From positions 64,001 through 128,000 of the IMG/VR virus record IMGVR_UViG_3300008117_000025: a stretch of 64,000 bases of DNA; one strand, 5' to 3'. The position numbers were made by a program, and so were the translations under genes. Below the pieces are notes generated by a model. That model made no database searches, was not told where the DNA came from, and saw only the letters and a program-made list of their open reading frames with translations. Source of the stretch: a virus. Below, piece after piece: positions 24,992 to 52,908 of this stretch (position 1 is the stretch's first letter; every line of letters starts with the position of its first letter).

Positions 24992-25023
24992 TAAATATAT
25001 AATAAGATTATGAGACAACCAAA
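24992..25023 (-). promoter_or_regulatory. Bacteroidota sigma70-like promoter (TTTG-N20-TATATTTA) for 24969 and downstream genes
   Basis: Minus strand TTTG GTTGTCTCATAATCTTATTA TATATTTA. Confidence 0.65.
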
Positions 25024-27104
25024 ATTTTCTCTAAGGTTTTTATTACTCTATCTGAAGATATTTCTTTAGAACATTCAAATTGGTGTTGTGTTCCTTTATG
25101 TACGGGGCACCAATTCCAATCACCTGCATCTAGCCTATGTGAGTTGAAACAACCCCTACATTTACCTAAAGGTGCATCAATGTGGTAACAACTAGTAGGT
25201 TCAGTATATTCTTCAGTAAAGCCAGATACTATTATTGTAGGTGTATCTGTAGCCCATGATAGCCAACTTAATCCACTGCTAATTCCTATAAATGCTTCAG
25301 ATTCATTAAGTACTTTTACAGTTGATTCCATATCAAATGAGTCAGGATACTTAATTCCAGTTGGGTTTTTATTTCCCATATATCCGTTTTCTTCTCTAGA
25401 TAACATTACTACTTCATATCCTTGATCTTTACACCAATCAACTACTTCTTGCCACCCTGTTGGATTATTCCAATATTTAGCTTGTGCTGTACTGTGAACA
25501 GCAATAGCAATTTGTTTTTTCTTTGCAACTAATGGCTTTTTTAATTTTGGTTTTACTTCTATAAAATCTAATCCTAGAATATCAGATGCTGTTTTCTGAA
25601 GGTTTTGTTGTTTAATGTCAAAAGGATTTTTATTAAAGTCAACATTATCATCACTATTGTAAAACCACCCTATAACATACATTGCGTATAAATTGTAAAC
25701 TGTATCTCCCGGTTTAACAAATTCAATTTCTGGGTATTGTGATTGGAAGAAATAATTATGAAATGTAGAGCAAATAACTTTACATTTGTGTTTTTTTCTA
25801 AATTCTTCAACATATGGAAACCAAGCTAAAGTATCACCCAATGATTTAGAATCTAAAGCAATATATACTCTTTTATCTTTAAGATCTAAATCATGTTGAT
25901 ATAATAAATTACCATTCTCATCTTCAATCTTTATTCTCCAATCTATATAATATTGTTTACTTGTTCTAACCCAACAATTACTTTCTATTTCTTGAGAATA
26001 TTCTACTGTGTTTGTTTTTTTATTAATAAAGCTTACTTTATGTTTTTTATAAGGTGAGTCTAACACTTCAGCAAAAGGACCATTAATAAAATTAATATTA
26101 AATTTAGGAATGTTTACTTTTGAAGGTATTCCTAGTTTTTTTGTTGATTTATAAATAGATATTAATTGATCTTTCATATTTATTTTATTGTCTTCATATT
26201 TTTTTAATAAATCTTTTGTTCTATTTTTCCAAGATAAATCTAATGCCTGTTGTCTTGCCCTAGATGAATATAATGTATGTGAATTAAATTTAATTTTATT
26301 AAAAGCATCAACAATTTCATCTACATCTCGATTTACAGCTATCATTCCCTTTAGTAAGTTATTATCCTCAAAAGTTCCAATAACAGGTAAGCCAGAAGCT
26401 AACGCTTCTAATAATGTTAAATTAGGATGTCCAGCCTCTAATATAGAAGCATGGATAAATACACTATGTTCTTTGTATATATTTTTTAATTGTTCTTCAT
26501 TAAGATCATATAAAATAGTTAATTTATCATAATCTGAAGGGAAGGTATCAAAATAGTTTTTATTATTACTTGGTCCGGCTATTGTAATAGGTAAATCTAG
26601 TTGTTTTGCTGCTTCAATAGCATATCCAAATCCTTTTCTGTCTTCGGCTTGATTATGAATAAATCCATTATTTGCTACACATAATAATTTGTGTTCTTTA
26701 AATTCTCCCGGAGTAAAATAGTCTGTATTTACTCCATGTGAAAAATATTCAGGTATTCCTTCAAAGTAATCAACTAAAAATTTAGCAGGCACAAAGGCTT
26801 TTTTAGCATTCTTGATTGCTTGTAAATTTTCTTTATAGGCAGTAGAATCTTTTCCATATAAAAAGGCATGATGGTCATGCATAGTAAAATAATATGGTAT
26901 TCCACGTTCATGTGCTAAATTAGCTAAATTAGCAACATGAATATGTACTACATCATAATCTTTTACATCATCTAAATATAATATTTGTGAATCATGTCCT
27001 AATTCTAATAGGGCATTGTGTGTCTCCCATATAATTTTTTCTACGGCTCCCCATCCATTTGGGGGAATAGGAATTAAACCAGGCGTAACATTAATTATTT
27101 TCAT
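25008..27104 (-). CDS. GT4 glycosyltransferase fused to an Aah/TibC-like (autotransporter) O-heptosyltransferase
   Basis: N-terminal GWGAVEK, KGF, EAGHPNLTLLEALASGLPV (GT4); C-terminal SLGDTLAWFPYVEEF, FIGISSGLSWLSW and CRGCFN...CPVH...FECS metal-binding Cys set. Confidence 0.82.
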   Translation of the reverse strand: MKIINVTPGLIPIPPNGWGAVEKIIWETHNALLELGHDSQILYLDDVKDYDVVHIHVANLANLAHERGIPYYFTMHDHHAFLYGKDSTAYKENLQAIKNAKKAFVPAKFLVDYFEGIPEYFSHGVNTDYFTPGEFKEHKLLCVANNGFIHNQAEDRKGFGYAIEAAKQLDLPITIAGPSNNKNYFDTFPSDYDKLTILYDLNEEQLKNIYKEHSVFIHASILEAGHPNLTLLEALASGLPVIGTFEDNNLLKGMIAVNRDVDEIVDAFNKIKFNSHTLYSSRARQQALDLSWKNRTKDLLKKYEDNKINMKDQLISIYKSTKKLGIPSKVNIPKFNINFINGPFAEVLDSPYKKHKVSFINKKTNTVEYSQEIESNCWVRTSKQYYIDWRIKIEDENGNLLYQHDLDLKDKRVYIALDSKSLGDTLAWFPYVEEFRKKHKCKVICSTFHNYFFQSQYPEIEFVKPGDTVYNLYAMYVIGWFYNSDDNVDFNKNPFDIKQQNLQKTASDILGLDFIEVKPKLKKPLVAKKKQIAIAVHSTAQAKYWNNPTGWQEVVDWCKDQGYEVVMLSREENGYMGNKNPTGIKYPDSFDMESTVKVLNESEAFIGISSGLSWLSWATDTPTIIVSGFTEEYTEPTSCYHIDAPLGKCRGCFNSHRLDAGDWNWCPVHKGTQHQFECSKEISSDRVIKTLEKILVVS

Positions 27105-28201
27105 TTTATTATATTAATAATTGATTGATAAGCTGCAAAATAATAACATTGATAATATTGAGGTATTCTAGATAATAATATATTAGTATATGGATTTTCG
27201 GCTTGGTTCCAAATTACAAGTTGGCATTTTTTTATGTTGTATTGCCTATCAGTATTTAAAAAATAATCTAGATCAGATTCATCTCTTAATACACAAACTA
27301 ATGCATCCTCATCTCCATCTATTTTATTTATATTTAATTCATGATCAAAAAATAATTCTTTAAGTAATGAATATTTTTTAAAATCTAATTGTCTATCTAA
27401 GTAAACTATTTTTTGTTGAGTATTTACATTATTTAAATGATGATCCATTAAACATAAAGATTCTTTATGAATAGGTTCAAAATATCTATTAAATGTATCT
27501 ATATCTTTATTAATACGCCTATTATTAACTTTTTTTATTAATTCACTACCTTCATCTACAGATTCATTTGCATAGAAGGTATGAGATATAGAATTTTCTC
27601 TATAGTTATAATAATATAAGTTTCTAGGGAGATGAAGTATTTTACCTTGTTCCTCTAAAGTACACAATATAGCTAAATCATTATAATAATATTTCATCCA
27701 ACCATTTGGATTAAAATCATAATCTATATTTGGGTTATTTCTCCATGCTCTTAAATAAGTTAAATAACCACAAGTCATATTTTTTTGGTCTGTAAAATCG
27801 GGATTGTGAAAATTCATCCAGTTTCCATCTTCTCTAAATGCGTTTCCAGCACCAGCAATTGCTATTGTATCTGGAAATTTGGTGAAGAAGTGATGGTATA
27901 CTTCTAATGCTTTAGGTAGAGGATAATCATCTTGATCTGCTTGTATTATTATTTCTGCTTCTTTGCAAAAATTTTGTGGGTTATAAAACATTTCTTTTTT
28001 GAAAGATTGTTCTACATACTTTACCTTTCTATCCCTACTAGAAATATATGATAAAATTTCTTTAGCATCTTCCGCATCAGATGAAAAATCGTCAGTAACT
28101 ATCCATTCCCAATTTGTATATGTTTGGGATTTTATTTTCTCATATAGTCTAGAAATAAAATGAGAACCATTATAAAAACTAGTAATTATAGTAAATTTCA
28201 T
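27101..28201 (-). CDS. GT2 (GT-A fold) glycosyltransferase
   Basis: IITSFYN, WEWIVTDDFSSD, ADQDD, YYYNYRENSIS. Confidence 0.85.
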   Translation of the reverse strand: MKFTIITSFYNGSHFISRLYEKIKSQTYTNWEWIVTDDFSSDAEDAKEILSYISSRDRKVKYVEQSFKKEMFYNPQNFCKEAEIIIQADQDDYPLPKALEVYHHFFTKFPDTIAIAGAGNAFREDGNWMNFHNPDFTDQKNMTCGYLTYLRAWRNNPNIDYDFNPNGWMKYYYNDLAILCTLEEQGKILHLPRNLYYYNYRENSISHTFYANESVDEGSELIKKVNNRRINKDIDTFNRYFEPIHKESLCLMDHHLNNVNTQQKIVYLDRQLDFKKYSLLKELFFDHELNINKIDGDEDALVCVLRDESDLDYFLNTDRQYNIKKCQLVIWNQAENPYTNILLSRIPQYYQCYYFAAYQSIINIIK

Positions 28202-28202
28202 A

Positions 28203-29186
28203 TTATTTAAATTCTACAAAGCTATTGCTATTAATTATTTGATCTTTTGTATATGTTATAACAGTATTTCCTAATCTTATAGTAAGATGGTTATTTGATT
28301 GTAAATGAGAAGGGAGTGGATTGGATTCATATTGACTTAGTAAATTTATAGTATCAATAAATTCATCATTTATATATAAATCTGCATATTGATTTTCATG
28401 AACAATATCAATACTATTCATATAAAAATAAGCAAAATCTGATGTGTTTTTTATTTTTAATAATTTAATATCAAGCTGATTGTTATCATCTTTAAGTCTG
28501 TTAATGTTTATTTTACTATTGGTAAAATAGTCATAGACTTGAGTTCCTTGTATTAATAGAGCATTATCTAAATAATTGTTTTGTTTTAAATTACAATAAA
28601 AGAAATTCTCTAATACTCCAAAACTTCCGATTTGACCACATAAATTTTGATAATCACCTACTGTTTTACATATAGGAAAAACCTTATTGAAAAAATCTAC
28701 TTTAGTGTAGAAAAATATTGTTTGTATACAATTATCAATTAAAAAGAAAAATGCTTCTTTATTGTTTTTTATTGTTTCTAATTTGGTATTTTTTAGTTGT
28801 TCTATGTCTTCTTTAGAAAATATAGAATCCCCTTCTACATAATAAAATCCATCATAATAATCTTTAATAAACGAAACTGCGCTCATCATAGATTTATATA
28901 TAGCGTATGAGTGATGATTATGGCCATTTTCACCATAATGATATTCTAAATAAAATTTAGGAGTATGAACGTAAAAATAAACATTTTCATTTATAAAAAA
29001 CTCATTTCTAATATCGTAAATATAATAATTTACTAATGATTGTATTTCTATATCTGCAGGATAATGAGTTACAAGTAATATATCAAAATGTTGATTTAAA
29101 CTTAATATTGTATCTTTTAATATTTGTTTTCTACTATCAGTAGAAGGATATCCACCTATAACAACAAGATCTCTATTATTTGACAT
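28203..29186 (-). CDS. hypothetical protein, possible GT-A-like; paralog of 29190..30269
   Basis: ILLVTH...YYIYD...YVEGDS; located in the GT island. Confidence 0.6.
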   Translation of the reverse strand: MSNNRDLVVIGGYPSTDSRKQILKDTILSLNQHFDILLVTHYPADIEIQSLVNYYIYDIRNEFFINENVYFYVHTPKFYLEYHYGENGHNHHSYAIYKSMMSAVSFIKDYYDGFYYVEGDSIFSKEDIEQLKNTKLETIKNNKEAFFFLIDNCIQTIFFYTKVDFFNKVFPICKTVGDYQNLCGQIGSFGVLENFFYCNLKQNNYLDNALLIQGTQVYDYFTNSKININRLKDDNNQLDIKLLKIKNTSDFAYFYMNSIDIVHENQYADLYINDEFIDTINLLSQYESNPLPSHLQSNNHLTIRLGNTVITYTKDQIINSNSFVEFK

Positions 29187-29189
29187 AAT

Positions 29190-30269
29190 TTAATTTAAAA
29201 CAAGTATGTTATTTATTAAATGTATATTATCTTTATTAATAATTACAGATCTAGTTTGATGATCATTCATAGTAATTTGTACTTCTACATTTTCTTCTGT
29301 TAAATCAAACGTTTCTACATAATTATCATTACTACTATATAAGTTATGTTCTATAATTTGTGGTTCTTGATTATTTCTTAGTATTTTAACAATAGATTTA
29401 TTATTATTTTCTGAACTACAATTCCATGTTATTATAGCAAATTTAGTATTGTCTGTAGGGGTATATTGTGGATCAACTCCTTCAACCGTATATCCTACTC
29501 TATGAATAGATGATATAAATCCATCTATTATCAGATCAGATTCTGAGGGGGATATAAGGGTATTCCAGGAAGAATCAGGGAAATCATCAAATATTATATT
29601 TGCTTGTTTATTTACTACATTATCAAACCCTCCTTCTGAGGATCTAACTATATTAAGAACAAACTCTTCAGCAATCATGAAATTTTCATCACTATTGAAA
29701 TTTCGTTTTGCTATAATATAATCATCTTCATTGTTTATTTTGGGGAAAATTTCAGTAAAATAATCTAAAGCAAAATACCAGAATTGGAAACAAATATATT
29801 TGTTTTGGTTTATATAGATGTATCCCTTTTTATTTTGTTCTTGGGTTTCAGCTATAATATTTTTAACATTTTCTATACTAGGAACTGTACAGTCATATTC
29901 TATTCTAAAAAAATGGGTATAACCTAAAGATAAGGCTAAATTAGTAGAATGATATAAATTAGACAAAACAGACAAACCATGTTTTTGAAATGCTTTAATT
30001 GCTATTGAAAAATATTTGTGGTTATCTCTATACCACATAGCAATAGTTTCTACATCTGAATAGTCTTTTTTAAATAGTCTGTTATTGTGATCGTATAGAA
30101 GATAATCTACTTCATCAATTAATGCTTGTTCAAATTTACTGTTTGTCACCAACATTATGGGGAGACCAGTTTTTTTAATAGAAGATAAATAATTTTTAAA
30201 AGTTCTTACACAATTGTCATTGTGAAAAAAAGCATCTACTATTATAATAGGTTTTATTTCTGGAGGCAT
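29190..30269 (-). CDS. hypothetical protein, possible GT-A-like; paralog of 28203..29186
   Basis: IMLVTN...YLLYD...RIEYDC; located in the GT island. Confidence 0.6.
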   Translation of the reverse strand: MPPEIKPIIIVDAFFHNDNCVRTFKNYLSSIKKTGLPIMLVTNSKFEQALIDEVDYLLYDHNNRLFKKDYSDVETIAMWYRDNHKYFSIAIKAFQKHGLSVLSNLYHSTNLALSLGYTHFFRIEYDCTVPSIENVKNIIAETQEQNKKGYIYINQNKYICFQFWYFALDYFTEIFPKINNEDDYIIAKRNFNSDENFMIAEEFVLNIVRSSEGGFDNVVNKQANIIFDDFPDSSWNTLISPSESDLIIDGFISSIHRVGYTVEGVDPQYTPTDNTKFAIITWNCSSENNNKSIVKILRNNQEPQIIEHNLYSSNDNYVETFDLTEENVEVQITMNDHQTRSVIINKDNIHLINNILVLN

Positions 30270-30273
30270 AGTG

Positions 30274-33200
30274 TTAGTTTATTCTTTTTAGGTATCCGTC
30301 TGGGTTGAAAGTAGAATTGGTTCCAAAATAATCACACCAATGTCTGTCTATAACAAAATCAGAATTTGTTTGCAAAAATTCATTAATAGCTTTACGAGGC
30401 CCTCCATTGTAAGTATCAGAAAGACCAGTAAAATCAATCACTCCATCTTCAACAATAAAGTAAGAATCTTTAGATACAATTTTACTAAATTTATTTAGGG
30501 ATTTTAATACATCTTCATAAGTGTGAGATCCATCATCTATAACTAGTATTTTTTCAAACCCTTTAGTATTTTTTTCTATATCATATTCTTCAAAACCACC
30601 ATAGAAAAACTTAATTTGACTATGATTAAATACTTTTTGATCGTGTATTTCATTATAGAGATTAATTGTATGAACTTCTCCTTTTCCTAATAAATACAAC
30701 AAATCAGCATAATATAAAGCTCCCCCACCCATATAGGTTCCGATTTCTATGATTAGGTCTGGTTTAATAGACATAATTAGCATTTGGTAGAGAGCATAAT
30801 CCATAGGGCATTTTAAATAGGGAACCTCCTTATATTGTACTGCAAAATGTCCACTATATATGTCTTGTAAATTTATATTAGATTCATGTACTAGGAAATT
30901 TTTATTCACATCTGGGTAAGCAGAGGTTATTACTTGGCTTTGCTTTGTAGTTACTTCTACTTTCCAGTCATGGCTTCTTTCTCCATAGGCACCATTGGGG
31001 GTAATTCTATAAACTCCTCCTACCCATTTATCATTTCTTCCTTTTCCTTTTTCTAAAAGTATAGTATTTAATGCCCAGTAAGCATCAAAAACATCTTCAT
31101 GGAAAAACCAATCAGGGAATTCCATGTCTTTAATAAGATTATTTCTAAACATAAAACCAAAAGAAATATAATTGGCTTTCATGTTATCTCTTAAGATTAC
31201 CTCTCCTTTTATACCCCAATAATAACTACTCATGAAATTATCATCACCAGGATTTTTTATATAATATCCAACACTGTAAACAGAATATTCTTTATTATTC
31301 TTTAAAAAGTTTATCTGTTTTTGTAATTTACTTTTATCGACATAGTAATCATCACCATCTAGAATAGTAACATATTCAGAACTAATTTTCTTTAAAAGAT
31401 CATAGGTCCTACGAATGACAGCTCCTTGATTTTTTTCATTTCTGTGTAGGATTACATTTGGAATATCTTTATATTTTTGTATGATATTCCAAGTATTATC
31501 TGTAGAGCAATCATCAGATATTAAGATATTGAAGTTAAATAATGTTTGTTGCATTAAAACACTATCAATACATTGTTCAATATATTCTTCATGATTGTAT
31601 GTAGGAATAAGTACAGTTAGTAACTTTTCCTCAGGAGATTTTTTAGCAAAAATAGTTCCAATAGGAGAAGATTTATATGCTTCTTCTATAATACTGTTGT
31701 TGTTTTCAGTATTTTGATCCCTAATTTGATCAACATCAAATCCCTTTTTAACTAAGGTTTGAATTAATTTTTCTACTCTTTCACCTTCATTATCATGAAA
31801 TTCTATAAGAAGATTATCTATTTTTTCAAAAATTTCATCTTCAAGATTTTCTATAATATCATATTCAGCCCCTTCAATATCCATCTTTAATAATGATAAT
31901 CTTTCAATATTATTTTGATCAAAGAATGTTTTTAAAGACACAGCAGGTACAGTTATTTGTTTTACCTCACTACCATTATTTTTAATATGATCTTCAGATA
32001 TACTTCCGATTGTAGTATTACTTGGGTCTATATAGAAAGTAAGATCTTCATCTTTAGTGTATATAGCTTTATCTATTACTTCTACATTTAAATCTTTTAC
32101 TAAGCAATTCAAATTAATTAACGATTCTTGATTAGGTTCAAATGCATAAACTTTTTTAGCTCCTTTATTAATTGCTAAAAGTGAAAATAATCCACTATTT
32201 GCTCCAACATCAAAAACAGTTTCCATTTTATCTAACTCATAGCAATCATATTTGTTCTGGAGGAACATTTCTCGATAATTGTTGAATAAACAATCAAATG
32301 GATTATCAATATTTAGTTTTACTTCTTTTTTAATAACATTTTTAACAAATAAATCCTTTAAAAATAAGAAGTTATCATTTTCATCATAAAATTCAACCGT
32401 TATAGTTCCTACAGCCGGGTCAGTAGCAAAATTTATGGATGATGTTGGTGTTGGAATTACCCACCAACTGCTATAGTTTATAAAAGTAACGGGAAACCAA
32501 TAGAGAGGAGCATTAGAATCTTTTTCCTTAATAGAAATTTTATAGGAATTAGGTTCAGCCCTTTTATAATTTATCGAAATTTTATTTTCTTCAGGTTGAA
32601 TATCAACATCAAAATAATTGCTTATGCTATTTGTGTTCATTTTTATATTTAGTTTGTTTAATATTTTTTCTATGTTTTGATTTTTATCACTAAAGTTTAA
32701 ATATTCAATATTATCGTACTTATTAAAGTAGTTTAAATATACGTCCAAATTATAAATTAAAGAAGGAACTCTCCAACTAATAGCTTCTCTAATTACTAAA
32801 GGCATTGTTTCTTTATCATTGATATGTCCTCTAGAAGTAAATAAGAATAGATCAGCCATTTGATAAAATGCATCTACATCACTTCTTTCTCCCCACCATT
32901 TACAGTTAGGAGGAAAATCCTTCATTATTGGTTCCCAATAATATTTAAAATTATCAGCTTGATTACCAATAAAATGGAATTGAATTGGATAATCCTGCAT
33001 TTGTTTTGCGTATTCAACAACTTCGGCTTGATTTTTTCTAGAGGTAAACAAACCTACATTAATAACATGTTTTTTATTAGGATCTAATCCTAACTCAGCT
33101 AATAATTCTTCTCTAGATTTTGTTTTTGTTTTGTATTCAATTGGGTATTCTACTAATTCACAAGGTATATTCAATGGTTTATATGCTTCAACTTGATATT

Positions 33201-33603
33201 GACTAACCATTGCAAAGTGATCAGGAAAGTGTTTTTTATTTGATATATCAAAACTAGAATCATGAGAAGTTTCAACTATCTTATATTTTCTATTTGAATT
33301 ATATAACTTTACAGCTAAATCATATGGCATAAACATTTCAGGAATTTCCTGGAGGTGAATAACATCTGGGTTTATTTTTTCAATATGTTCAAATAGTTTT
33401 TCTCTGGGTTCTCCTAGGGTAATTAGTCTGTTTCCCAATAAGTTGACGACTCTATTACGTTGAACTACTAAAACACCCCCTGTAATGTTATCCCATTCAA
33501 TACACCATACTTCACAACTTTCATTTAAAACCTCCATTTGTTTGTAAAGGTATTGAGGCATTCCTCCTGTAGATAGGTGAGGAGCAATAAAAAGTATTTT
33601 CAT
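30274..33603 (-). CDS. four-domain fusion: GT4 - FkbM methyltransferase - GT2 - CmcI-like O-methyltransferase
   Basis: HLSTGGMPQY and ETMPLVIREA (GT4); DVGANSG, AFEPN, KMDIEGAEY (FkbM); IPTYNHE, LDGDDY (GT2); KPDLIIEIGT, IDDGSH, VEDG (CmcI). Confidence 0.85.
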   Translation of the reverse strand: MKILFIAPHLSTGGMPQYLYKQMEVLNESCEVWCIEWDNITGGVLVVQRNRVVNLLGNRLITLGEPREKLFEHIEKINPDVIHLQEIPEMFMPYDLAVKLYNSNRKYKIVETSHDSSFDISNKKHFPDHFAMVSQYQVEAYKPLNIPCELVEYPIEYKTKTKSREELLAELGLDPNKKHVINVGLFTSRKNQAEVVEYAKQMQDYPIQFHFIGNQADNFKYYWEPIMKDFPPNCKWWGERSDVDAFYQMADLFLFTSRGHINDKETMPLVIREAISWRVPSLIYNLDVYLNYFNKYDNIEYLNFSDKNQNIEKILNKLNIKMNTNSISNYFDVDIQPEENKISINYKRAEPNSYKISIKEKDSNAPLYWFPVTFINYSSWWVIPTPTSSINFATDPAVGTITVEFYDENDNFLFLKDLFVKNVIKKEVKLNIDNPFDCLFNNYREMFLQNKYDCYELDKMETVFDVGANSGLFSLLAINKGAKKVYAFEPNQESLINLNCLVKDLNVEVIDKAIYTKDEDLTFYIDPSNTTIGSISEDHIKNNGSEVKQITVPAVSLKTFFDQNNIERLSLLKMDIEGAEYDIIENLEDEIFEKIDNLLIEFHDNEGERVEKLIQTLVKKGFDVDQIRDQNTENNNSIIEEAYKSSPIGTIFAKKSPEEKLLTVLIPTYNHEEYIEQCIDSVLMQQTLFNFNILISDDCSTDNTWNIIQKYKDIPNVILHRNEKNQGAVIRRTYDLLKKISSEYVTILDGDDYYVDKSKLQKQINFLKNNKEYSVYSVGYYIKNPGDDNFMSSYYWGIKGEVILRDNMKANYISFGFMFRNNLIKDMEFPDWFFHEDVFDAYWALNTILLEKGKGRNDKWVGGVYRITPNGAYGERSHDWKVEVTTKQSQVITSAYPDVNKNFLVHESNINLQDIYSGHFAVQYKEVPYLKCPMDYALYQMLIMSIKPDLIIEIGTYMGGGALYYADLLYLLGKGEVHTINLYNEIHDQKVFNHSQIKFFYGGFEEYDIEKNTKGFEKILVIDDGSHTYEDVLKSLNKFSKIVSKDSYFIVEDGVIDFTGLSDTYNGGPRKAINEFLQTNSDFVIDRHWCDYFGTNSTFNPDGYLKRIN

Positions 33604-33623
33604 AACTTATAAAACTAATTTAT

Positions 33624-38581: not shown

Positions 38582-38613
38582 TAAATATACGAAACTAAAT
38601 TTGTACTTCCAAA
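38582..38613 (-). promoter_or_regulatory. Bacteroidota sigma70-like promoter heading the oxygenase/glycosyltransferase island
   Basis: Minus strand TTTG GAAGTACAAATTTAGTTTCG TATATTTA, 20 nt upstream of ATG 38561. Confidence 0.7.
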
Positions 38614-44089: not shown

Positions 44090-44102
44090 AACTTGTTTAT
44101 AA

Positions 44103-45818
44103 TTATTTTATAAAATCAACTTGCACACCTATTTCTGTTAGAGAACCAGTAAAGTTTACTATATTAAAATATAATGTATCTCCTATATTAAAATTTGTAT
44201 TTTGTAATGTTGAGCTTGATACCCAAGATCCAGTTATGTTAACGGAAAGGTTTGAAGCTAACAAAGTAGTTGCAGCAGTATTTTTAAATGCATTTACTAC
44301 TAAACCAGATCCACTATCTCTAAATCCTGCTACTAAACTAGCTGTGCAGGTAAATGGAGCTCTCCATCCTACAAATGAGCCTGTATCGGATTGAGCAACA
44401 AGGCTATTATTAATTATGACAATTGATTTAGAGAAGCTAGTAAAACCAGCACTTATACCACTGGTACCACTACTTCCTGTTTGACCACTAGTGCCGCTTG
44501 AGCCTGATGTAATACCAGGAGCGGATGTGCCTGAGGTGCCACTTGAGCCTGTTTGACCGCTTGTACCGCTTGAGCCTGTTTGACCTGAGGTGCCGCTTGA
44601 CCCTCGTGTGCCACTAGTGCCGCTTGATCCGCTTGTTCCGCTTGAACCATTTTGACCAGAAGTACCACTTGAGCCAGTTTGACCAGAAGTACCGCTTGAA
44701 CCTGTTTGACCGCTTGTACCACTTGAACCGGTTTGACCTGAAGTACCGCTTGAACCTGTTTGACCACTTGTGCCGCTTGAGCCTGTTTGGCCTGAAGTGC
44801 CGCTTGAGCCAGTTTGACCGCTAGTACCACTACTGCCTGTTTGACCACTTGTGCCACTCGAGCCAGTTTGACCGGAGGTACCGCTTGAACCTGTTTGACC
44901 GGAGGTACCGCTTGAACCTGTTTGACCTGAGGTGCCGCTTGAGCCATTTTGGCCTGAAGTACCGCTTGAGCCGTTTTGGCCACTAGTACCACTTGAGCCT
45001 GTTTGACCAGAAGTGCCACTTGAACCGTTTTGGCCGCTAGTACCGCTAGAACCTGTTTGACCGCTTGTGCCGCTTGAGCCATTTTGGCCTGAGGTGCCGC
45101 TTGAACCATTTTGACCAGAAGTGCCACTTGAGCCTGTTTGACCACTAGTACCACTAGAGCCATTCTGACCTGAGGTGCCACTTGAGCCTGTTTGGCCGGA
45201 GGTGCCACTTGAGCCTGTTTGGCCGGAGGTGCCACTTGAGCCTGTTTGGCCGGAGGTGCCACTTGAACCGTTTTGGCCGCTAGTGCCGCTTGAACCGTTT
45301 TGGCCTGAGGTACCGCTAGAGCCTGTTTGGCCGCTTGTGCCGCTTGAACCATTCTGGCCTGAGGTGCCACTTGAGCCTGTTTGGCCGGAGGTGCCACTTG
45401 AACCGTTTTGGCCGCTAGTGCCGCTTGAACCTGTTTGGCCGCTTGTGCCACTTGAGCCTGTTTGACCTGAGGTGCCGCTTGACCCCCGTGTGCCACTAGT
45501 GCCGCTTGAACCGCTAGTACCACTTGAACCATTTTGGCCTGATGTGCCAGAAGAGCCTGCAGTACCACTAGTTCCACTAGTAGCAGCTGTATATGAAGTT
45601 CCGTTTATATTGAGAGAACCAGTTATGTTTACTGAGCCCGTAAATTGATGTGTGTTACTTGATAGGCTACCAAAGCGAGTAGATCCTGTTACAAAATCAA
45701 TAGATGAAGTTATTGTTTGTACATTAAGTGTTTGAGCAGTAATTGTATTAGTTACAACTACACTACCTGTAACACTTAAATCGTTAAAACTACCCGAATC
45801 TGTATAAAATATTGGCAT
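44103..45818 (-). CDS. collagen-like (Gly-X-Y, Ser/Thr-rich, Pro-free) fibre protein with C-terminal globular domain
   Basis: (GSSGTSGQT/N)n tract; N-terminal HQFTGS module shared with the neighbouring fibre gene. Confidence 0.82.
   Translation of the reverse strand: MPIFYTDSGSFNDLSVTGSVVVTNTITAQTLNVQTITSSIDFVTGSTRFGSLSSNTHQFTGSVNITGSLNINGTSYTAATSGTSGTAGSSGTSGQNGSSGTSGSSGTSGTRGSSGTSGQTGSSGTSGQTGSSGTSGQNGSSGTSGQTGSSGTSGQNGSSGTSGQTGSSGTSGQNGSSGTSGQNGSSGTSGQTGSSGTSGQTGSSGTSGQTGSSGTSGQNGSSGTSGQTGSSGTSGQNGSSGTSGQNGSSGTSGQTGSSGTSGQNGSSGTSGQTGSSGTSGQNGSSGTSGQNGSSGTSGQTGSSGTSGQTGSSGTSGQTGSSGTSGQTGSSGTSGQTGSSGTSGQTGSSGTSGQTGSSGTSGQTGSSGTSGQTGSSGTSGQTGSSGTSGQNGSSGTSGSSGTSGTRGSSGTSGQTGSSGTSGQTGSSGTSGTSAPGITSGSSGTSGQTGSSGTSGISAGFTSFSKSIVIINNSLVAQSDTGSFVGWRAPFTCTASLVAGFRDSGSGLVVNAFKNTAATTLLASNLSVNITGSWVSSSTLQNTNFNIGDTLYFNIVNFTGSLTEIGVQVDFIK
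44523..45575 (-). repeat. tandem 27-nt coding repeat, about 117 uninterrupted Gly-X-Y triplets
   Basis: Units GGN TCN AGY GGN ACN WSN GGN CAA A(C/A)N with synonymous variation. Confidence 0.92.
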
Positions 45819-45834
45819 GATCTAATATAAATAT

Positions 45835-48800
45835 TTAATTAGTTTCCCCATATGCTGTTGCTATCCAATATGTTGTTCCTGCTAATCCTACATTACTATT
45901 TGCATTTATAACAAAGCTACCAGATACTTTACTTTCTACAGTCCATGTTCTTGAATCTTCGCCTGTTATAACTACAGCATAGTTTGCATCAGCAAAAGCT
46001 GCAGCAAAAGTTATAGTTGATTTTCTAGGATTACCAGCAAAGGATCCTGCAGCTACTGATCCTGCTTTTGTTTTTAATCCAGAAACACCAGCATTTAAAG
46101 CATAAGAAGCAGTTGTTGCAAACGAAGCAGTACCTAATAATGAACCTGTAAAGTTAGTAGCAATTATTGAACTAGTTACATTCAAAATACCACCCGTAAA
46201 GCTCATACTTACAGATGCTGTTGCTGCATTAACTGTACCGTCTGATAATAGTATTCTTCCTGTAGCAGGACTATTAATTGTATTAAAACCAGTACCAGCA
46301 GTACCTGAGGAGCCACTTGTACCAGTAGAGCCTGATGTGCCACTAGAACCAGAAGTGCCAGATGAACCTGAAGTACCACTAGAGCCGCTTGTACCACTGG
46401 TGCCACTTGAGCCACTTGTGCCACTTGTGCCACTTGAGCCGTTTTGGCCTGAGGTCCCACTTGAGCCGCTTGTGCCAGACGATCCATTTTGACCACTAGT
46501 GCCACTAGATCCACTTGTACCACTTGAACCACTAGTACCTGATGAGCCAGATGTACCTGCTGTGCCTGAAGTACCAGTAGTTCCTGAAGTACCGCTTGTA
46601 CCTGTAGTACCTGATGTGCCACTAGTTCCACTAGTTCCTGAAGTAGCAGCTGTATAGGAAGTTCCGTTTATTGTAAGAGAACCTGATATATCTAAGCTGC
46701 CGCTTACTATAAAATTATTTGAAAATGAAGATGTTGCAGCATAGGATGCAGATGCAGGAATACCATTTACCCACAAACCAGCATTATAAACTAATGCTTG
46801 TCCTGTTGAAGGAGAAGAAATAGTTACATCACCTAAATCATTTAAGTTTGTTACTGCAGCACCACCACCACCTGAGGATCCGGCTGTGTTTCTGAATAGG
46901 CCAGCTTGGATTATTTTATTATTTGCTGTATCAGATAAATCAGTTGTATCACCTTTAGCAATAATGTAACCAATAAACGGTAATGCTAATTGACTAGTTG
47001 GTGATTCAACAAATTCTTCTGTTGTAATACTTTGAAGTGCTGTTGAAAGATTGTCATAAACATTTTGACCATAATAGACATATGATAAATTATTAACAAC
47101 ACCCTGGAATACTCTTTGTATTGTCCATTGACTTGCACTTACTGTTTGAAGTGTACCAGATCCATTGTCGTATTTAGTAGGATCAATAACTGTATAAGGA
47201 ACACCAGCATTAGTTGCAGCTCTATATCCCCCTGTTACTCCTGGATCTCTGTATACCCTAACTAAACTACCAGTAGCAATAGTAGTAGAATCATAAATTG
47301 AAGGTGAAGTTGGATTTTGACTATAAAAACCACCATAGCGATATGCTTGTCCAGAAGCAATACTAATTCTTAAACTGCTTGTTTGTGGAGTAATATCAAA
47401 TCCACTTATTTTTAATGGACCAAATGCTCTAACAAACTGATTTGATTGTTCTGATTGGCCATATGTTGTTACACGAGCATCAGCAAATGAACTAATACTT
47501 GATGTTGTTAAATTAAATATATAACCTAATGGGAATTGTTCATTATATTGTTGAGGAGTAAATGGAGAAGTTTGTTGTATTAAACTACCATTTGAATCAA
47601 TTAATAGATAAGTTACTTGAGATGAAGTTATATATTGAGCACTAGCTGTTATAGGGCCAAATTGAACATAGGTTGGATTTGTACTATTGTGTGAGCTGGT
47701 AATAGCATTGTGATCTATAATTAGACCAGCACCTGGTGTGACATAAAGTATAGAGCCGGAGAATGTGGTAACGCCACCCCAAACAATACCAGTATCAGTT
47801 CTTTCTTCTAACCAGTGTGTTTCCCAAAGAGCACTATTGTTTCTATAATGTAAATTTGGTATAGTATCATCTAAAGAAGAAGTTACAAAGAAATAAGATG
47901 AAGATACATTTGATCCACCTGGGTCAGTTCCAGGTTTTAATTCTAAATAGTTTCTAATTGCAAATATATTTGCAGAAGAAGCTGTTGAAGCAAAACTAGC
48001 TGTTGTTGCTGTAGCAGCATTACCACTTATAGATGCACTAATATATGATTCATTCTCCCATTTAGTAGAAGTAGAATTATATACTAATGCTTGACCGTCT
48101 GTAGGTCCTGATATCATTACATCAGATAAATCTACTAAACGAGTAGTTATTACTGATCCACCACCACCTGATCCTCCTACTGATCTAAATAGACCTCCAG
48201 GTACGATCGTGAAGTCATTAGCATTTGTAAATACACCACTTCCGTTAATTATAACAGCACCTAGATAAATTGCATTAGCAGCTGTATTAGGAGCTTCTAC
48301 GAATGGTTCTATGTTTATATTTGCAATAGCTTCAGATTCTGAACCGTAATAAGCATTACCATAATAAACAACTATTGCTTTAGCTACACTATTAGGAAAC
48401 CAGAATACTCTTTGAATAGTCCAGTTTAAATTTGCAGGTGGAGGTACTGCTGTTAATGTACCATTATTAGAATATTGTGTAGGGTCAATTGATGTAAATC
48501 CAGCTCCTCCGTTAGTTTGATAAACCCAAGTAGATCCTGATTGATAATATCTGTATATTTTAGAAATACTAGTTCCTGAGTCAACAGCATATGATGGTTC
48601 GTTTGGATCTATAGTATAATTAGATCCTGGAGAATAAGCGGTACCACTACCTACTACTAAACCACCTGTAGAAGATCCACTAGGTGTTAAAGTAAATCCT
48701 GATAATTTTAATGGACCAAACGCTCTATTGAATATATTTTGTGATTGTTCAAAACCATATGCTACAGAAGGCTGTGTTTTGACAGCATTAATTGTAGATC

Positions 48801-51800
48801 CATTTTGAAATAATACAACACCTATATTAATTAATGTATCAAACTGTCCATTACTAAAAGGAGTTCCTTGTTGGAAGATATTACCAGTCGAATCAACAGC
48901 AACAAAAGCTTGTTGGTAAGATGCTGTTAAAGGAGCAATACTAGCTGATAAATTGCCCCAGTTAAGGTATTGAATTGTTGGGTAAGGATTATCATTTAAA
49001 CTTGCATTTAAATCAACAATAATACCACTACCACTACTAATATTATATGTAGTAGATCCTGTAGCAGCTGTTATTACACCACCATTTAATAATCCAGTAT
49101 ATAAATTACCTTCTAACCAACGTAAACGAGTTGTATTAGAATATCCTCCTCCATTCTGAGAAAAATATAAGTCATTTGTAGATCCACTTACATAAATGTA
49201 AGAGGCAGATATTGAAGTATCTATATTTGTTGTTACAGGATCAAATCTATGATAACCTGATTGCCTAATATCACCATATATTTGTACTGATGCTGTTGCA
49301 GCTCCCGGTCCACTAGATCCAGAAATAGTAATACTACCTGATAATGAAGTATTTCCAAGTAATATATTGTTACCTATTTGGGTAGTAGAACCACTTACTA
49401 GGAAACTGCCTGTTATAGTTTGAATACCAATAAAAGTATTTGAACCGCTTGTATTTAATGAACCAGTTAATTTATAAGAGCCAATTAATTCTTTAGAATT
49501 AACCCAAACACTACCACTCTTTATAAATAAATCACCATATGATGAAGTAGTTGTACTATCAACTACATCATGTAATTCTCCTAATTCATATCCATTATCA
49601 ATCTTAATGTAGATTGAACCTACATTATTATCTATTCTTTCAGCATATCCTAATCTTACACCATGAAGTGGTGCTACAGGAGGAGTTTGAGTGAATTGAC
49701 CCGCTGAGCTACTTAAAAATATTAATTGACCTCCTACTAATCCTGTTGTATTTAATCCTCTTAAAGTACCTTCTGTTTGTACCCAACCTTCATCACCAGC
49801 GTTAATTGTTTCAGCAATAAAACCTAATGTATTAGCTGAACCTTGTTCAGCAGTTGCTGAAGCTAATTTAACAGCTATTCTATTACCTTGAGAGCCTGAA
49901 ATATATACTACTTGACCTTTAGTTAAGGTTCCACCACTATTATTGTAAACATATTGAAATAAATCTTCACCTATATTTAAAGTTACATTACCTCCAGCTA
50001 ATCCAAATTGTAAAGTACCTTCACCACTATCATATCCTAGTCTACCAAGAGCAGAAGCAAATGAAGCACTAGTATTAAAATCAATGTAATCTACATTAGT
50101 TATAGATCCTGATGTGTAATTTAATGAACCTGAAATATAAACAGATCCTGTTATATACAAAGCACTTCCACTATAAGTTAAATTAGCGGAAGCAGTTGCA
50201 GCATTTACACTACCGTCTGATAATAATATTCTGCCTACAGCAGGATCATATATTGTATTAAAGCCAGTGCCACTTGTGCCGCTAGAACCTGAAGTACCTG
50301 ATGAGCCAGAACTACCTGATGTTCCAGAAGAACCACTTGAACCTGATGTTCCAGATGAGCCACTTGTACCAGAGCTTCCTGATGTTCCTGAAGAACCAGA
50401 ACTACCACTTGTGCCTGAGCTTCCACTTGAACCTGAAGTTCCTGATGAGCCTGAACTTCCTGATGTACCACTTGAACCTGAACTACCACTTGTGCCTGAA
50501 GACCCAGAGGTACCGCTAGTTCCGGATGTACCAGAACTGCCGCTTGTACCAGAAGAACCACTTGTTCCTGAGGAGCCACTTGATCCTGCTGTACCACTTG
50601 TGCCTGAAGAGCCTGCGGTGCCGCTAGTTCCACTAGTAGCAGCTGTATATGAGGTTCCGTTTATAGTAAGGGAACCAGTTATATTTACTGATCCAGTAAA
50701 CTGATGGATATCACTTAATTCATCTCCAAATTTATTACTTCCACTGCTATATATAATAGAGGAAGTTATGTATTGTACATTTAAAGTTTGGGCAGTAATT
50801 GTATTAGTTACAGTTAAAGAACCACTAATAAAAGTACTACCAGTAATATTAAAATTACTATTACTATAAGTTAAATTGACAGAAGCCGTTGCTGCGTTAG
50901 CTGTACCATCTGAAAGTATTACTCTACCTTGAGAAGGAGAATTAATAGTATCAAAGCCTGTACCGCTTGTACCTGAACTTCCAGAAGAACCACTTGATCC
51001 ACTTGAACCTGATGTACCAGATGAACCTGAGGTACCACTAGATCCTGAAGAACCAGATGTACCTGAGCTGCCACTAGAGCCAGATGTTCCGGAGGAGCCG
51101 GAGCTTCCTGATGTGCCTGAAGAGCCAGAACTGCCTGAAGTTCCACTTGAACCCGAAGTACCTGATGATCCAGAGGTACCACTTGAACCACTAGAACCAC
51201 CAGTACCACTAGAGCCGCTTGTACCGGATGAACCAGAAGAACCTGCTGTACCGCTAGATCCTGCTGTACCACTTGTACCAGAAGAGCCTGCTGTACCACT
51301 AGTTCCACTAGTAGCAGCAGTATAAGAGGTACCATTTATAATTAAAGAACCAGTTATATCTACTGATCCGGTAAACTGGTGGGTATCTGTTAATAAAGAA
51401 CCAAATCTAGTTGATCCAGTTACATATTCAGTAGAAGATGTAATTGTTTGAGCGTGAATTGTTTGTGCTGTAAGAGTACCTCTTACTGTAAAATTATCTG
51501 CTGAAGAAGCGGTTGCTGCATTAGAAGCAGATATAATACTATTAGAACCATAAGGACCCCAAACATTAGCTCCTGTTATAAAAGATGCTGTTAATGCATT
51601 TTGTGCCCAACTAGAAGTACCATGTAAAGAACCAGTAATACCATTTAAAACAGTTAGTGAACCACTAATATTTAAAGAACCAGTTAATTCATGTTGATTA
51701 TTAGGATTTAATACTAATTTTTTATTTGCTTCTGTATCAGTACCACCAGCAAAAAACATTACTGGGTGGTTTGAGGCATTACCTATATGTAAGTGGTCTC

Positions 51801-52908
51801 CGGTAGAATATAGGTAAGCATCATTAGCCATACCTATAGCATTAGGTTGACTATAGTTACTACTATTGATACCCATATCAATGTAGTAACTAGATTCATT
51901 TCCTATATCATTAGTAGCAACTATATCAGCAGATGCTGTAGTTCCTGAATTTATATTTTGGATAGAAATTTGTGAGTAGTTATTTACATCTGATTCTGCT
52001 TGGATTAGATTGTATGTATTAGGAGCTGCAGGGGGAGCTACTATTCTTAACGCTGGTAGGGCAGGGCTTGCTGCGGAGCTTGTAGTATCAGTATTAAAAC
52101 TTGTTACACCTTCAGGATGAAACCAAATTTTAGCATTTGCTGTAGTGTCTAAACCACCATTAAATATAACAATTTTTTTATCAGCAGCAGCGTTTCCTAT
52201 ATAAAAGTCGTTTGCTTTAGAGAATAAATAACCATCATTTCCTAAACCAACAAAAAATGGATTATTATATGTACTACTATTAATACCAAAATCAACATAG
52301 TAATTATCTTCATCACCTATATCGTTTGTAACAACAATATCAGTTGATGCTAATGATCCACTACTTATATTTTTAAAGTTAACTTGAGAATAATTATCAG
52401 TATTGCTTCTACCAACAATTAAGTTATATGTTGTATCATCATGAGATACAATCAATAATGTTTCTGGGTTAAACTGGTCAAAAGAGCTAGTATTGATTGC
52501 AACACTACCGCTTTGATTGATAAGAAGTAAAGTAGTATTGCCTGAAGGGTCAGGAACATTATATGTTACTTCAAAAGCTCTCTCAGGATTAATGCTAACA
52601 CTAGCTGTAACACTACCTGTTACTATTCTGGAACTATCTACAACTGGTAGATTAGCTACATATGATGCTGTTAAAGCATAACTTGCGGTACCTAATAATG
52701 AGCCAGTAAATGAGCCTGAAAATGAGCCTGTAAATGCTCCTATTTTAGAGCCAATCGTAACAACTTCTTCACCGCTAGAACCTGACTTTTTCATAAAAGC
52801 CAGACCGTCGTATGTATTTAAAGCAATCTCTCCAAAATCAAGAGAAGAGGTAGTTGGTATTCTACCTGGTACCGCAGAACGGCGTAATTTTAAATATTGA
52901 TTCGACAT
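45835..52908 (-). CDS. giant tail fibre (2357 aa) with Mtd-N-like anchor, three Gly-X-Y S/T tracts and internally duplicated domains
   Basis: LKLRRSAVPGRIP...GEIALNTYDG anchor; tracts near 50960-51300, 50270-50640 and 46290-46640; duplicated RAFGPLK(L/I)SG domain. Confidence 0.85.
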   Translation of the reverse strand: MSNQYLKLRRSAVPGRIPTTSSLDFGEIALNTYDGLAFMKKSGSSGEEVVTIGSKIGAFTGSFSGSFTGSLLGTASYALTASYVANLPVVDSSRIVTGSVTASVSINPERAFEVTYNVPDPSGNTTLLLINQSGSVAINTSSFDQFNPETLLIVSHDDTTYNLIVGRSNTDNYSQVNFKNISSGSLASTDIVVTNDIGDEDNYYVDFGINSSTYNNPFFVGLGNDGYLFSKANDFYIGNAAADKKIVIFNGGLDTTANAKIWFHPEGVTSFNTDTTSSAASPALPALRIVAPPAAPNTYNLIQAESDVNNYSQISIQNINSGTTASADIVATNDIGNESSYYIDMGINSSNYSQPNAIGMANDAYLYSTGDHLHIGNASNHPVMFFAGGTDTEANKKLVLNPNNQHELTGSLNISGSLTVLNGITGSLHGTSSWAQNALTASFITGANVWGPYGSNSIISASNAATASSADNFTVRGTLTAQTIHAQTITSSTEYVTGSTRFGSLLTDTHQFTGSVDITGSLIINGTSYTAATSGTSGTAGSSGTSGTAGSSGTAGSSGSSGTSGSSGTGGSSGSSGTSGSSGTSGSSGTSGSSGSSGTSGSSGSSGTSGSSGSSGTSGSSGSSGTSGSSGTSGSSGSSGSSGSSGTSGTGFDTINSPSQGRVILSDGTANAATASVNLTYSNSNFNITGSTFISGSLTVTNTITAQTLNVQYITSSIIYSSGSNKFGDELSDIHQFTGSVNITGSLTINGTSYTAATSGTSGTAGSSGTSGTAGSSGSSGTSGSSGTSGSSGTSGTSGTSGSSGTSGSSGSSGTSGSSGSSGTSGSSGSSGTSGSSGSSGTSGSSGTSGSSGTSGSSGSSGTSGSSGSSGTSGSSGTSGTGFNTIYDPAVGRILLSDGSVNAATASANLTYSGSALYITGSVYISGSLNYTSGSITNVDYIDFNTSASFASALGRLGYDSGEGTLQFGLAGGNVTLNIGEDLFQYVYNNSGGTLTKGQVVYISGSQGNRIAVKLASATAEQGSANTLGFIAETINAGDEGWVQTEGTLRGLNTTGLVGGQLIFLSSSAGQFTQTPPVAPLHGVRLGYAERIDNNVGSIYIKIDNGYELGELHDVVDSTTTSSYGDLFIKSGSVWVNSKELIGSYKLTGSLNTSGSNTFIGIQTITGSFLVSGSTTQIGNNILLGNTSLSGSITISGSSGPGAATASVQIYGDIRQSGYHRFDPVTTNIDTSISASYIYVSGSTNDLYFSQNGGGYSNTTRLRWLEGNLYTGLLNGGVITAATGSTTYNISSGSGIIVDLNASLNDNPYPTIQYLNWGNLSASIAPLTASYQQAFVAVDSTGNIFQQGTPFSNGQFDTLINIGVVLFQNGSTINAVKTQPSVAYGFEQSQNIFNRAFGPLKLSGFTLTPSGSSTGGLVVGSGTAYSPGSNYTIDPNEPSYAVDSGTSISKIYRYYQSGSTWVYQTNGGAGFTSIDPTQYSNNGTLTAVPPPANLNWTIQRVFWFPNSVAKAIVVYYGNAYYGSESEAIANINIEPFVEAPNTAANAIYLGAVIINGSGVFTNANDFTIVPGGLFRSVGGSGGGGSVITTRLVDLSDVMISGPTDGQALVYNSTSTKWENESYISASISGNAATATTASFASTASSANIFAIRNYLELKPGTDPGGSNVSSSYFFVTSSLDDTIPNLHYRNNSALWETHWLEERTDTGIVWGGVTTFSGSILYVTPGAGLIIDHNAITSSHNSTNPTYVQFGPITASAQYITSSQVTYLLIDSNGSLIQQTSPFTPQQYNEQFPLGYIFNLTTSSISSFADARVTTYGQSEQSNQFVRAFGPLKISGFDITPQTSSLRISIASGQAYRYGGFYSQNPTSPSIYDSTTIATGSLVRVYRDPGVTGGYRAATNAGVPYTVIDPTKYDNGSGTLQTVSASQWTIQRVFQGVVNNLSYVYYGQNVYDNLSTALQSITTEEFVESPTSQLALPFIGYIIAKGDTTDLSDTANNKIIQAGLFRNTAGSSGGGGAAVTNLNDLGDVTISSPSTGQALVYNAGLWVNGIPASASYAATSSFSNNFIVSGSLDISGSLTINGTSYTAATSGTSGTSGTSGTTGTSGTSGTTGTSGTAGTSGSSGTSGSSGTSGSSGTSGQNGSSGTSGSSGTSGQNGSSGTSGTSGSSGTSGTSGSSGTSGSSGTSGSSGTSGSTGTSGSSGTAGTGFNTINSPATGRILLSDGTVNAATASVSMSFTGGILNVTSSIIATNFTGSLLGTASFATTASYALNAGVSGLKTKAGSVAAGSFAGNPRKSTITFAAAFADANYAVVITGEDSRTWTVESKVSGSFVINANSNVGLAGTTYWIATAYGETN

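Follow-up and report, generated by a model that had tools for sequence, protein, structure and literature searches.

Introduction

To our knowledge, the BAHT (Aah/TibC) family of glycosyltransferases has so far been known only from bacterial autotransporter virulence systems, and virion glycosylation by phage enzymes has been shown experimentally only for the capsid and tail-tube proteins of mycobacteriophages. Here, a TibC-like enzyme is described from a phage genome, the IMG/VR virus record IMGVR_UViG_3300008117_000025 (182,846 bp, direct terminal repeats, estimated 100% complete). The window analysed comprises 64,000 nucleotides (bases 64001-128000 of that record; GC content ~33%), and positions refer to the window unless stated otherwise. 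The enzyme is encoded in a 13.5-kb minus-strand block of genes (38561 to 25008), hereafter the island, which lies between the fibre genes and the tail sheath gene. As the best reading, to which a probability of about 0.6 is assigned, the phage would encode a cytoplasmic protein O-glycosylation pathway that targets its own tail-fibre proteins.

Several described systems offer points of comparison. The cuticle collagen of Riftia is a hydroxyproline-poor triple helix with O-glycans on the hydroxy-amino acid in the Y position of the Gly-X-Y repeat. In chlorovirus PBCV-1, the cytoplasmic multidomain protein A064R (glycosyltransferase-glycosyltransferase-methyltransferase) acts on a virion protein, and the genome contains genes for GDP-sugar synthesis, as does that of the present phage; PBCV-1 differs in being a eukaryotic virus with N-linked capsid-protein glycans and without a BAHT initiator. 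Bacillus BclA and mimivirus collagen are also hydroxyproline-poor triple helices with an O-glycosylated hydroxy-amino acid in the Y position; the glycan of BclA includes methylated deoxy-sugars, and mimivirus encodes its own modifying enzymes (PMC8968730). Both differ from the phage fibres described below: BclA tracts are mostly Gly-Pro-Thr, whereas those of the phage contain no Pro and use Ser, the enzymes are unrelated, and the mimivirus sugars are linked to hydroxylysine (PMC8968730).

In mycobacteriophages, phage-encoded glycosyltransferases decorate virion structural proteins, according to the account of Freeman et al. 2023 that is given in PMC12619734. That account names C-terminal extensions as the targets, on subunits of the capsid and of the tail tube; the enzymes are non-BAHT, and no collagen-like acceptor is known there. 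Glycosylation there is reported as experimentally shown (PMC12619734), whereas the present system is predicted.

TibC of enterotoxigenic Escherichia coli (ETEC) forms a dodecameric ring and moves heptose from ADP-heptose onto protein (PMC4358343). All characterised BAHTs are protein Ser O-glycosyltransferases, and their acceptors are Ser residues in the beta-helix strand-loop-strand repeats of AIDA-type autotransporter passengers; TibC modifies Ser, not Thr, with sites in TibA mapped as NSGG and VSGT (PMC4358343). Asp-110 is the catalytic base, Thr-226 and Lys-230 are ligands of the beta-phosphate, Trp-305 touches heptose O4, and Arg-286, which is needed for activity, forms with N1 of adenine the hydrogen bond on which ADP specificity is based (PMC4358343). 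Four Cys residues (339, 342, 358 and 370) hold one iron in a 1Fe-0S iron finger, and the position that governs stereoselectivity is occupied in TibC by Pro-300 and in AAH, the enzyme of diffusely adhering E. coli (DAEC), by Ser-294 (PMC4358343).

Proline-free collagen-like tracts in the tail fibres

The phage is a myovirus of the Flavobacterium phage vB_FspM_immuto / Microcystis phage Mel-JY01 lineage, and its major capsid protein (MCP) is 61% identical to that of vB_FspM_immuto and 50% identical to that of Mel-JY01. Every gene from capsid to sheath is on the minus strand. The main features of the locus, with protein lengths in amino acids (aa), are:

58074-59693, minus strand: major capsid protein
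45835-52908, minus strand: 2357-aa fibre protein with Gly-X-Y tracts of 39 (50956-51306), 41 (50263-50631) and 39 triplets (46288-46638)
44103-45818, minus strand: 571-aa fibre protein with one tract of 117 triplets (44523-45575) of the types GSS/GTS/GQT/GQN (Pfam Collagen, tail-fibre PHROGs)
38891-44089, minus strand: 1732-aa DUF5122/Kelch-like propeller protein, between the fibres and the island (PF17164, E 1.3e-45; phrog_27227, E 8e-181)
25008-27104, minus strand: 698-aa fusion of an N-terminal GT4 domain (residues ~1-300) and a C-terminal BAHT/TibC-like domain (residues 351-694) (Pfam, TIGR04414)
22134-23843, minus strand: tail sheath protein

Two fibre genes with four Pro-free tracts of GSS/GTS/GQT/GQN had been claimed by the original prediction, and all of this was confirmed: the four tracts amount to 236 triplets, with zero Pro at X or Y. 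Gly recurs uninterrupted at every third residue through the 117-, 39-, 41- and 39-triplet tracts, which is the periodicity of Pfam Collagen (PF01391), and the two fibres match this family with E-values of 4e-54 and 1e-42. The enrichment in proline or hydroxyproline that is typical of animal and most bacterial collagens is absent from these tracts. Ser and Thr make up 79-96% of the X and Y residues, with Gln, Asn, Ala, Gly and Arg accounting for the remainder. The X position is taken by Ser, Thr or Gln, and 68-93% of the triplets have Ser at Y. Outside the tracts, the fibres are likewise rich in Ser and Thr (24-30%).

A TibC-like domain with conserved catalytic residues and an altered donor site

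Judged by its sequence, the C-terminal domain of the 698-aa protein is a genuine member of the BAHT (Aah/TibC) family. Residues 351-693 align with TibC (PDB 4rap, 4rb4) at an E-value of 1.8e-59, and residues 351-694 score 292.9 bits against the equivalog model TIGR04414 (hepto_Aah_TibC, 'autotransporter strand-loop-strand O-heptosyltransferase'), for which the cut-off is 200. Pfam labels the domain GT9 only, and PHROGs contains no family for it. Identity to TibC/AAH is ~40% over ~345 residues, and the layout of beta-barrel, GT-B core, thumb and iron finger can be aligned throughout.

Conservation of single residues was assessed in an alignment of 171 non-redundant viral and metagenomic homologues. 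The equivalents of Asp-110, Thr-226, Lys-230 and Trp-305 (D424, T539, K543 and W614 of the 698-aa protein) are invariant, as are those of the iron-finger Cys residues (C649, C652, C666 and C678), so that iron binding is predicted. The thumb residues are conservatively kept, with Tyr/Phe-Met where TibC has Phe-Val, and the Pro-300 position is occupied by Gly or Ser in the viral homologues. The residue equivalent to Arg-286 is Thr-595; in the alignment this position is taken by Val or Thr, or else by Ala, Ile or Leu. None of the homologues has Arg there, and no invariant basic residue was found near it. The catalytic machinery and architecture are thus kept, but the donor may carry a nucleotide other than that used by TibC.

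Heptose is a doubtful donor sugar: the Arg that specifies ADP is absent, and no gene for SIS/GmhA or for a PfkB/HldE kinase was found when the complete phage genome was searched for them. An Aah/TibC-like protein O-heptosyltransferase had originally been predicted; membership in the BAHT family is borne out by the TIGR04414 score, and heptose is doubtful with Arg-286 replaced. A phage-encoded ADP-heptose pathway was considered and rejected for the same lack of PfkB and SIS_2/GmhA genes; the sole CTP_transf_like match lies within a 1368-aa open reading frame (ORF) whose counterpart in immuto is annotated NadR/NMNAT. At another locus with a TibC-like gene (L041, IMGVR_UViG_3300042385_001265), PfkB and cytidylyltransferase genes lie beside it, a putative HldE-like lead.

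Tracts and TibC-like genes occur together

Relatives of TibC are rare among viruses, with 4 in 50,697 GenBank phage records and ~395 among 2.9 million IMG/VR contigs. From an arbitrary sample of IMG/VR contigs matched with a degenerate DNA pattern for the tract, 72 whole records were searched, and 63 of these contain a real tract. Among the matches listed, to which all counts in this direction refer, a TibC-like gene was present in 22 of the 63 tract-bearing records and in none of the nine with a weak pattern match only. Its share rises with contig size (18/37 at >=30 kb, 16/26 at >=50 kb and 10/11 at >=100 kb), which is the pattern expected of a near-obligate pairing that is sampled through fragments. 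In the reverse direction, tracts were found in 19 of 44 TibC-positive records and in 5 of the 7 with at least 40% completeness; the reversed tract pattern, used as a control in these records, gave 0 matches. One apparent exception, the 94%-complete genome G084, has short Pro-free Gly-X-Y runs of Ser, Thr and Ala that the pattern misses.

Within the close lineage, tracts are present in all of the TibC-positive relatives (G073-G078). Neither a TibC-like gene nor a tract was found in immuto or in 19 IMG/VR relatives (sheath 70-80% identical, contigs of 25-119 kb). In two of the negatives, synteny extends from capsid to sheath and homologous fibre modules are retained, with no Gly-X-Y run longer than 4 triplets and no island genes. 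For the 571-aa fibre, identity in these two is 71-77% over the N-terminal 64 aa; the 2357-aa fibre, in its non-collagen parts, matches a fibre of tract-free genome G117 at 45% identity over 755 aa. In a tree of sheath proteins, the close TibC-positive phages form one clade (support 0.87).

The pairing also recurs farther away. Instances are a separate clade with ~50% sheath identity, genomes with MCPs 61-62% identical, a jumbo phage of 299 kb whose MCP is 37% identical, and phages of 66 kb and 73 kb without an MCP match. The 735-kb GenBank phage LR756501 has TibC and tracts, with 1473 pattern matches. Among contigs of prokaryotic genome bins, all five whose BAHT shares 46% identity or more with that of the phage have Ser/Thr tracts within 10 kb, and none of the nine with a BAHT at most 43% identical has them, classical Burkholderiales genes included. 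Co-occurrence of the tracts with Aah/TibC-like enzymes across phage genomes, which the original prediction had proposed as a check, is therefore strongly positive in both directions, within and across lineages.

Enzyme and tract need not be adjacent. In the 168-kb genome G108, to which locus L041 belongs, the enzyme gene is at ~87 kb and the main tracts are in two ~3,900-aa fibres at 129-155 kb; the nearest tract is ~27 kb and the main tracts are 40-55 kb from the enzyme gene, so physical linkage is not required. One carrier has been cultured: in Mel-JY01 (PP395634.1, L003) the domain ends a 1226-aa GT4-...-methyltransferase-TibC fusion, directly downstream of a fibre with hundreds of GSS/GTS/GTR/GTD triplets.

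Two observations concern the records themselves. In PP395634.1 (1-3052 and 9152-9986), the collagen-like fibre is annotated in GenBank on the wrong strand, as Pro/Val/Glu-rich hypothetical proteins; the record begins within this fibre gene, and a second, downstream tract fibre seems to be split by a frameshift. At L041 (194-6961), a 2255-aa tail fibre with a gp53-like C-terminus adjoins GT4-methyltransferase and TibC-like genes, and Hint/intein-type domains at residues ~1675-1977 would represent an intein within the fibre gene.

Fusion partners and neighbours of the TibC-like domain

TibC-like domains are either stand-alone (~380 aa) or fused. The partners are GT4 in many architectures, a methyltransferase (L076), GT4 with a GT-A-like domain (L019) and GT4 with a methyltransferase (Mel-JY01). 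Homologues of the domain of a 327-aa island protein (28203-29186) are fused within the TibC-containing ORFs of L019 and L076. The GT4 domain of a 1109-aa island protein (30274-33603) is the commonest TibC neighbour, with a homologue at 59 of 81 loci; FkbM is found at 15 of 81. The oxygenases, GT2 and GT9-like gene of the island are common only to the nearest relatives, and the tandem trio of PF13759-type oxygenases is kept only in L004 and L005. The oxygenases are accordingly unsupported as conserved partners, because they are confined to these nearest relatives. Most TibC-positive loci are without a homologue of the 1732-aa propeller protein.

That the island lies next to the fibre genes, which the original prediction had used as an argument, carries little weight: the TibC-negative relative G121 has a different island in the same slot. 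This ~25-kb cargo island (~66400-90600 of G121, L300-L301) encodes proteins whose N-termini resemble, by eye, SGNH/GDSL hydrolases and a carbamoyltransferase.

A second glycan cluster of the same phage lies outside the window, at ~20000-34500 of the genome (L296:3995-18531). It encodes a GDP-mannose 4,6-dehydratase (GMD, 395 bits), a GDP-fucose-synthase-like short-chain dehydrogenase/reductase (SDR), two further SDRs, a DegT aminotransferase, a split transketolase/E1-like pair, a TylF O-methyltransferase, GT10 and GT11 fucosyltransferase-like proteins, two GT2 and two GT1. It was weighed as a component of the system and discarded as evidence for it; GMD-family genes are present in TibC-negative relatives and missing from several TibC-positive genomes.

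Proposed pathway and its alternatives

In the proposed pathway, the BAHT/TibC-like domain would put the first sugar from a nucleotide sugar on Ser hydroxyls. The likeliest sites would be the Y-position Ser residues (x-Ser-Gly context) in the Pro-free tracts of the 571-aa and 2357-aa fibres. The abundance of Ser at Y and its x-Ser-Gly context fit the specificity of TibC for Ser over Thr and its NSGG and VSGT sites, and the tracts are the likely target of the enzyme. The fused GT4 domain and that of the 1109-aa protein would then extend the sugar, probably together with the GT-A-fold paralogs and the GT2 domains, and the FkbM and CmcI-type methyltransferase domains would cap the glycan by O-methylation. 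The order of these steps is inferred, as is the choice of the tracts over other fibre parts as acceptor. Membership of the five oxygenases and of the GT9-like protein in the pathway is not demonstrable. That the island glycosylates the fibre tracts had been the central proposal of the original prediction, which is partly supported: BAHT membership and the co-occurrence speak for it, as does the fusion of TibC-like domains to GT4, methyltransferase or GT-A partners. Heptose is doubtful, the partnership of the oxygenases is unsupported, and the argument from adjacency is weak.

Like TibC and AAH, the viral enzyme would be soluble and cytoplasmic and would act on many Ser residues of a long surface protein that is repetitive and rod-like. 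It differs in that phages encode it, and GT4, methyltransferase or GT-A domains are usually fused to it or encoded beside it. With Val or Thr for Arg-286 across the viral clade, its donor may not be ADP-heptose. In place of a beta-helix, a collagen-like Gly-X-Ser repeat is its presumed acceptor, and the phage is without an autotransporter; a search of the complete genome for the autotransporter barrel PF03797 found none. By analogy with the BclA, mimivirus and Riftia collagens, a Pro-free triple helix stabilised by the glycan is plausible. Whether helix stabilisation or masking of the virion is the purpose is pure inference. More broadly, and as a tentative proposal held at somewhat less than even odds, a widespread and hitherto unrecognised viral BAHT subfamily, usually fused or adjacent to GT4 and methyltransferase, may be a dedicated modifier of Pro-free (Gly-Ser/Thr-Ser)n rods in phages of 66-735 kb, with serial O-glycosylation of Y-position Ser replacing hydroxyproline for helix stability. 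Virion glycosylation of this new kind would then be phage-wide.

Several points weigh against fibre glycosylation by the island. The glycan on the fibres is itself a prediction from sequence, and the co-distribution of enzyme and tract could result from joint inheritance or transfer of a fibre cassette. Since the close-lineage positives form one clade, they count as a single gain, not as five events. Among the matches listed, ~1/3 of the tract-bearing contigs of 50-100 kb and one 148-kb tract record that is 84% complete are without a detected TibC gene, and GenBank phage LR756504 has a TibC relative at 36% identity and no tract. The ADP-specifying Arg is lost throughout the 171 homologues, known BAHT substrates are beta-helical autotransporter passengers and not collagen, and the fibre-sheath site is a cargo hotspot, as seen in G121. 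In the literature, moreover, such islands are read as modifying host lipopolysaccharide (LPS) (PMC7029224).

This last reading, in which the island would alter the host envelope during infection (O-antigen of the LPS, capsule or surface glycoprotein, e.g. to block superinfection) and its link to the fibres would be one of position only, is nevertheless considered unlikely here. For marine myophages with glycosyltransferase islands in hypervariable fibre regions it is the standard interpretation (PMC7029224), and pathways for LPS and capsule are where GT2, GT4 and GT9-like enzymes are typically found. It would also accommodate the different, carbohydrate-type cargo in the fibre-sheath slot of TibC-negative G121 and the second glycan cluster (GMD, GDP-fucose-synthase-like, DegT, GT10, GT11), such genes being present in TibC-negative relatives too. 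However, the BAHT family modifies proteins, not lipid-linked glycans, and GT4, methyltransferase and GT-A domains are fused to this protein-targeting enzyme. No flippase, polymerase or ligase was found among the island enzymes, and a crude hydropathy scan gave no transmembrane-like segment in any of them, so that the membrane components of a serotype-converting Gtr-type or a Wzx/Wzy-dependent system (GtrA-type flippase, polytopic transferase, polymerase or ligase) are missing. The TibC-like gene also follows the tracts rather than host or habitat, with 20 close relatives from similar samples lacking both. Far more improbable still is a hypermodification of phage DNA against restriction, with the oxygenases hydroxylating bases. 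DNA-modifying glycosyltransferases are common in phages (PMC12619734), and 2-oxoglutarate (2OG) oxygenases could in principle act on bases; but Pfam, NCBIfam and PHROG scans of the island gave nothing similar to known DNA glycosyltransferase families, BAHT enzymes are protein-specific, the island lies within the structural module, and covariation with the tracts would be left unexplained.

An acceptor in the virion but outside the tracts, either Ser in Ser-rich, beta-structured fibre parts (e.g. ITGSL, ISGSL) or the 1732-aa propeller, is about as improbable as envelope remodelling; the tracts would then merely belong to the same fibre family. Known BAHT acceptors are indeed Ser residues in beta-helix strand-loop-strand repeats, the fibre parts outside the tracts have the high Ser and Thr content given above, and the GT4-methyltransferase/TibC pair of L041 adjoins the 2255-aa fibre, which is tract-free. 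Yet G108, the genome behind L041, has tract fibres elsewhere, and tract-free relatives keep homologous non-collagen fibre modules without any TibC. The association was, furthermore, found by searching for the tract itself, with TibC in 10 of 11 contigs of at least 100 kb among the matches listed.

If the fibre tracts are glycosylated as proposed, several consequences would follow. Fibre-region glycosyltransferase islands of aquatic phages are routinely taken as host LPS modifiers, and their annotation would change. The folding of Pro-free collagens would be explained, BAHTs would gain a new class of acceptor and possibly a new donor, and an unreported kind of virion glycosylation would be recognised, with a bearing on how receptors are recognised, how stable virions are in water and how glyco-collagen materials are designed. 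The BAHT family has a large viral branch that is almost always accompanied by Pro-free Ser/Thr collagen in the fibres. Cultured Mel-JY01, with enzyme and tract side by side, makes the hypothesis directly testable. A literature search on phage BAHT/TibC enzymes, Mel-JY01 and fibre O-glycosylation retrieved no earlier description.

Other genes of the island

The remaining genes of the block, in ascending coordinates, are:

27101-28201, minus strand: 366-aa GT2 (GT-A) glycosyltransferase (PF00535, E 3.2e-12)
28203-29186, minus strand: 327-aa glycosyltransferase-like protein of GT-A fold with a C-terminal beta domain (AlphaFold2 (AF2) model, pLDDT 75, Foldseek; without Pfam match)
29190-30269, minus strand: 359-aa paralog of the 327-aa protein (BLASTP, 24% identity, E 6e-8)
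30274-33603, minus strand: 1109-aa protein with GT4/GT1, FkbM methyltransferase, GT2 and CmcI/rhamnosyl O-methyltransferase-like domains (Pfam, NCBIfam)
33624-33809, minus strand: small ORF of 61 codons that fills the sole gap of the block; candidate gene, read from the sequence
33809-34765, minus strand: 318-aa GT-B protein, GT9-like (heptosyltransferase-like fold; AF2 pLDDT 92, Foldseek)
34765-35436, 35417-36070 and 36073-36660, minus strand: tandem array of three PF13759/TIGR02466-type 2OG-Fe(II) oxygenases (Pfam, NCBIfam)
36673-37287 and 37291-37875, minus strand: two PF13640-type (P4H/PKHD-like) 2OG-Fe(II) oxygenases (Pfam, NCBIfam)
37875-38561, minus strand: 228-aa protein, first gene of the block (without Pfam or PHROG match)

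All ORFs of the block were found at their predicted coordinates and on a common minus strand. The GT4, GT2 and GT9-like domains were recovered by Pfam matches and, for the 318-aa protein, by AF2 and Foldseek. Both predicted O-methyltransferase domains (FkbM and CmcI) proved to lie inside the 1109-aa protein, and the five oxygenases divide into three of the PF13759/TIGR02466 and two of the PF13640 type. A single host-type promoter for the block could not be upheld: sigma-70-like sites number 78, fewer than the 101 +/- 11 in shuffled sequence, and sigma-70 may not be the promoter type of the host.

The two paralogs at 28203-29186 and 29190-30269 are, from the structural model, of GT-A fold and had been absent from the original list; the top Foldseek matches of the 327-aa model are all GT-A transferases. 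For the 318-aa protein, Pfam (including GT9, PF01075) and NCBIfam scans gave no match, and it has 773 representatives in a global library; its Atlas tie to GT9 runs only via a neighbouring cluster. As a description of the fold, the GT9-like label holds, because the AF2 model best matches GT9 structures (3tov, WaaC, WaaF and TibC; TMq 0.5-0.62). A weak GtrB-like PHROG match in the island arises from the GT2 domain alone. The start of the 61-codon ORF overlaps the upstream stop (TAATG). The 228-aa protein is 97% identical in L004 and L005, and a stem-loop (38601-38627) lies just upstream of its gene. Megablast of the island against GenBank phages gave no matches.

In the gap between island and sheath, a 100-aa ORF (24667-24969, minus strand) has a strongly hydrophobic start (MTLLIIVLIVAGIVAAVIL), which is the only transmembrane-like segment of the region.

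Observations in the tail module

An open frame of 679 codons (15517-17618, minus strand) contains no ATG, GTG or TTG and was overlooked by ORF lists. Three in-frame stops precede it, and an ATG is located ~18 codons upstream in another frame (MPLLDLKTDLKSLKYG...). Programmed frameshifting is suggested by this, or else an indel in the assembly near GGGATGG; a tRNA and Rfam scan of the stretch gave no match. Also in the tail module, a 1126-aa protein (11829-15209, minus strand) has an endolysin-like C-terminal domain (phrog_17001, residues 975-1123) and is probably a tape-measure protein or a tail-associated lysin.

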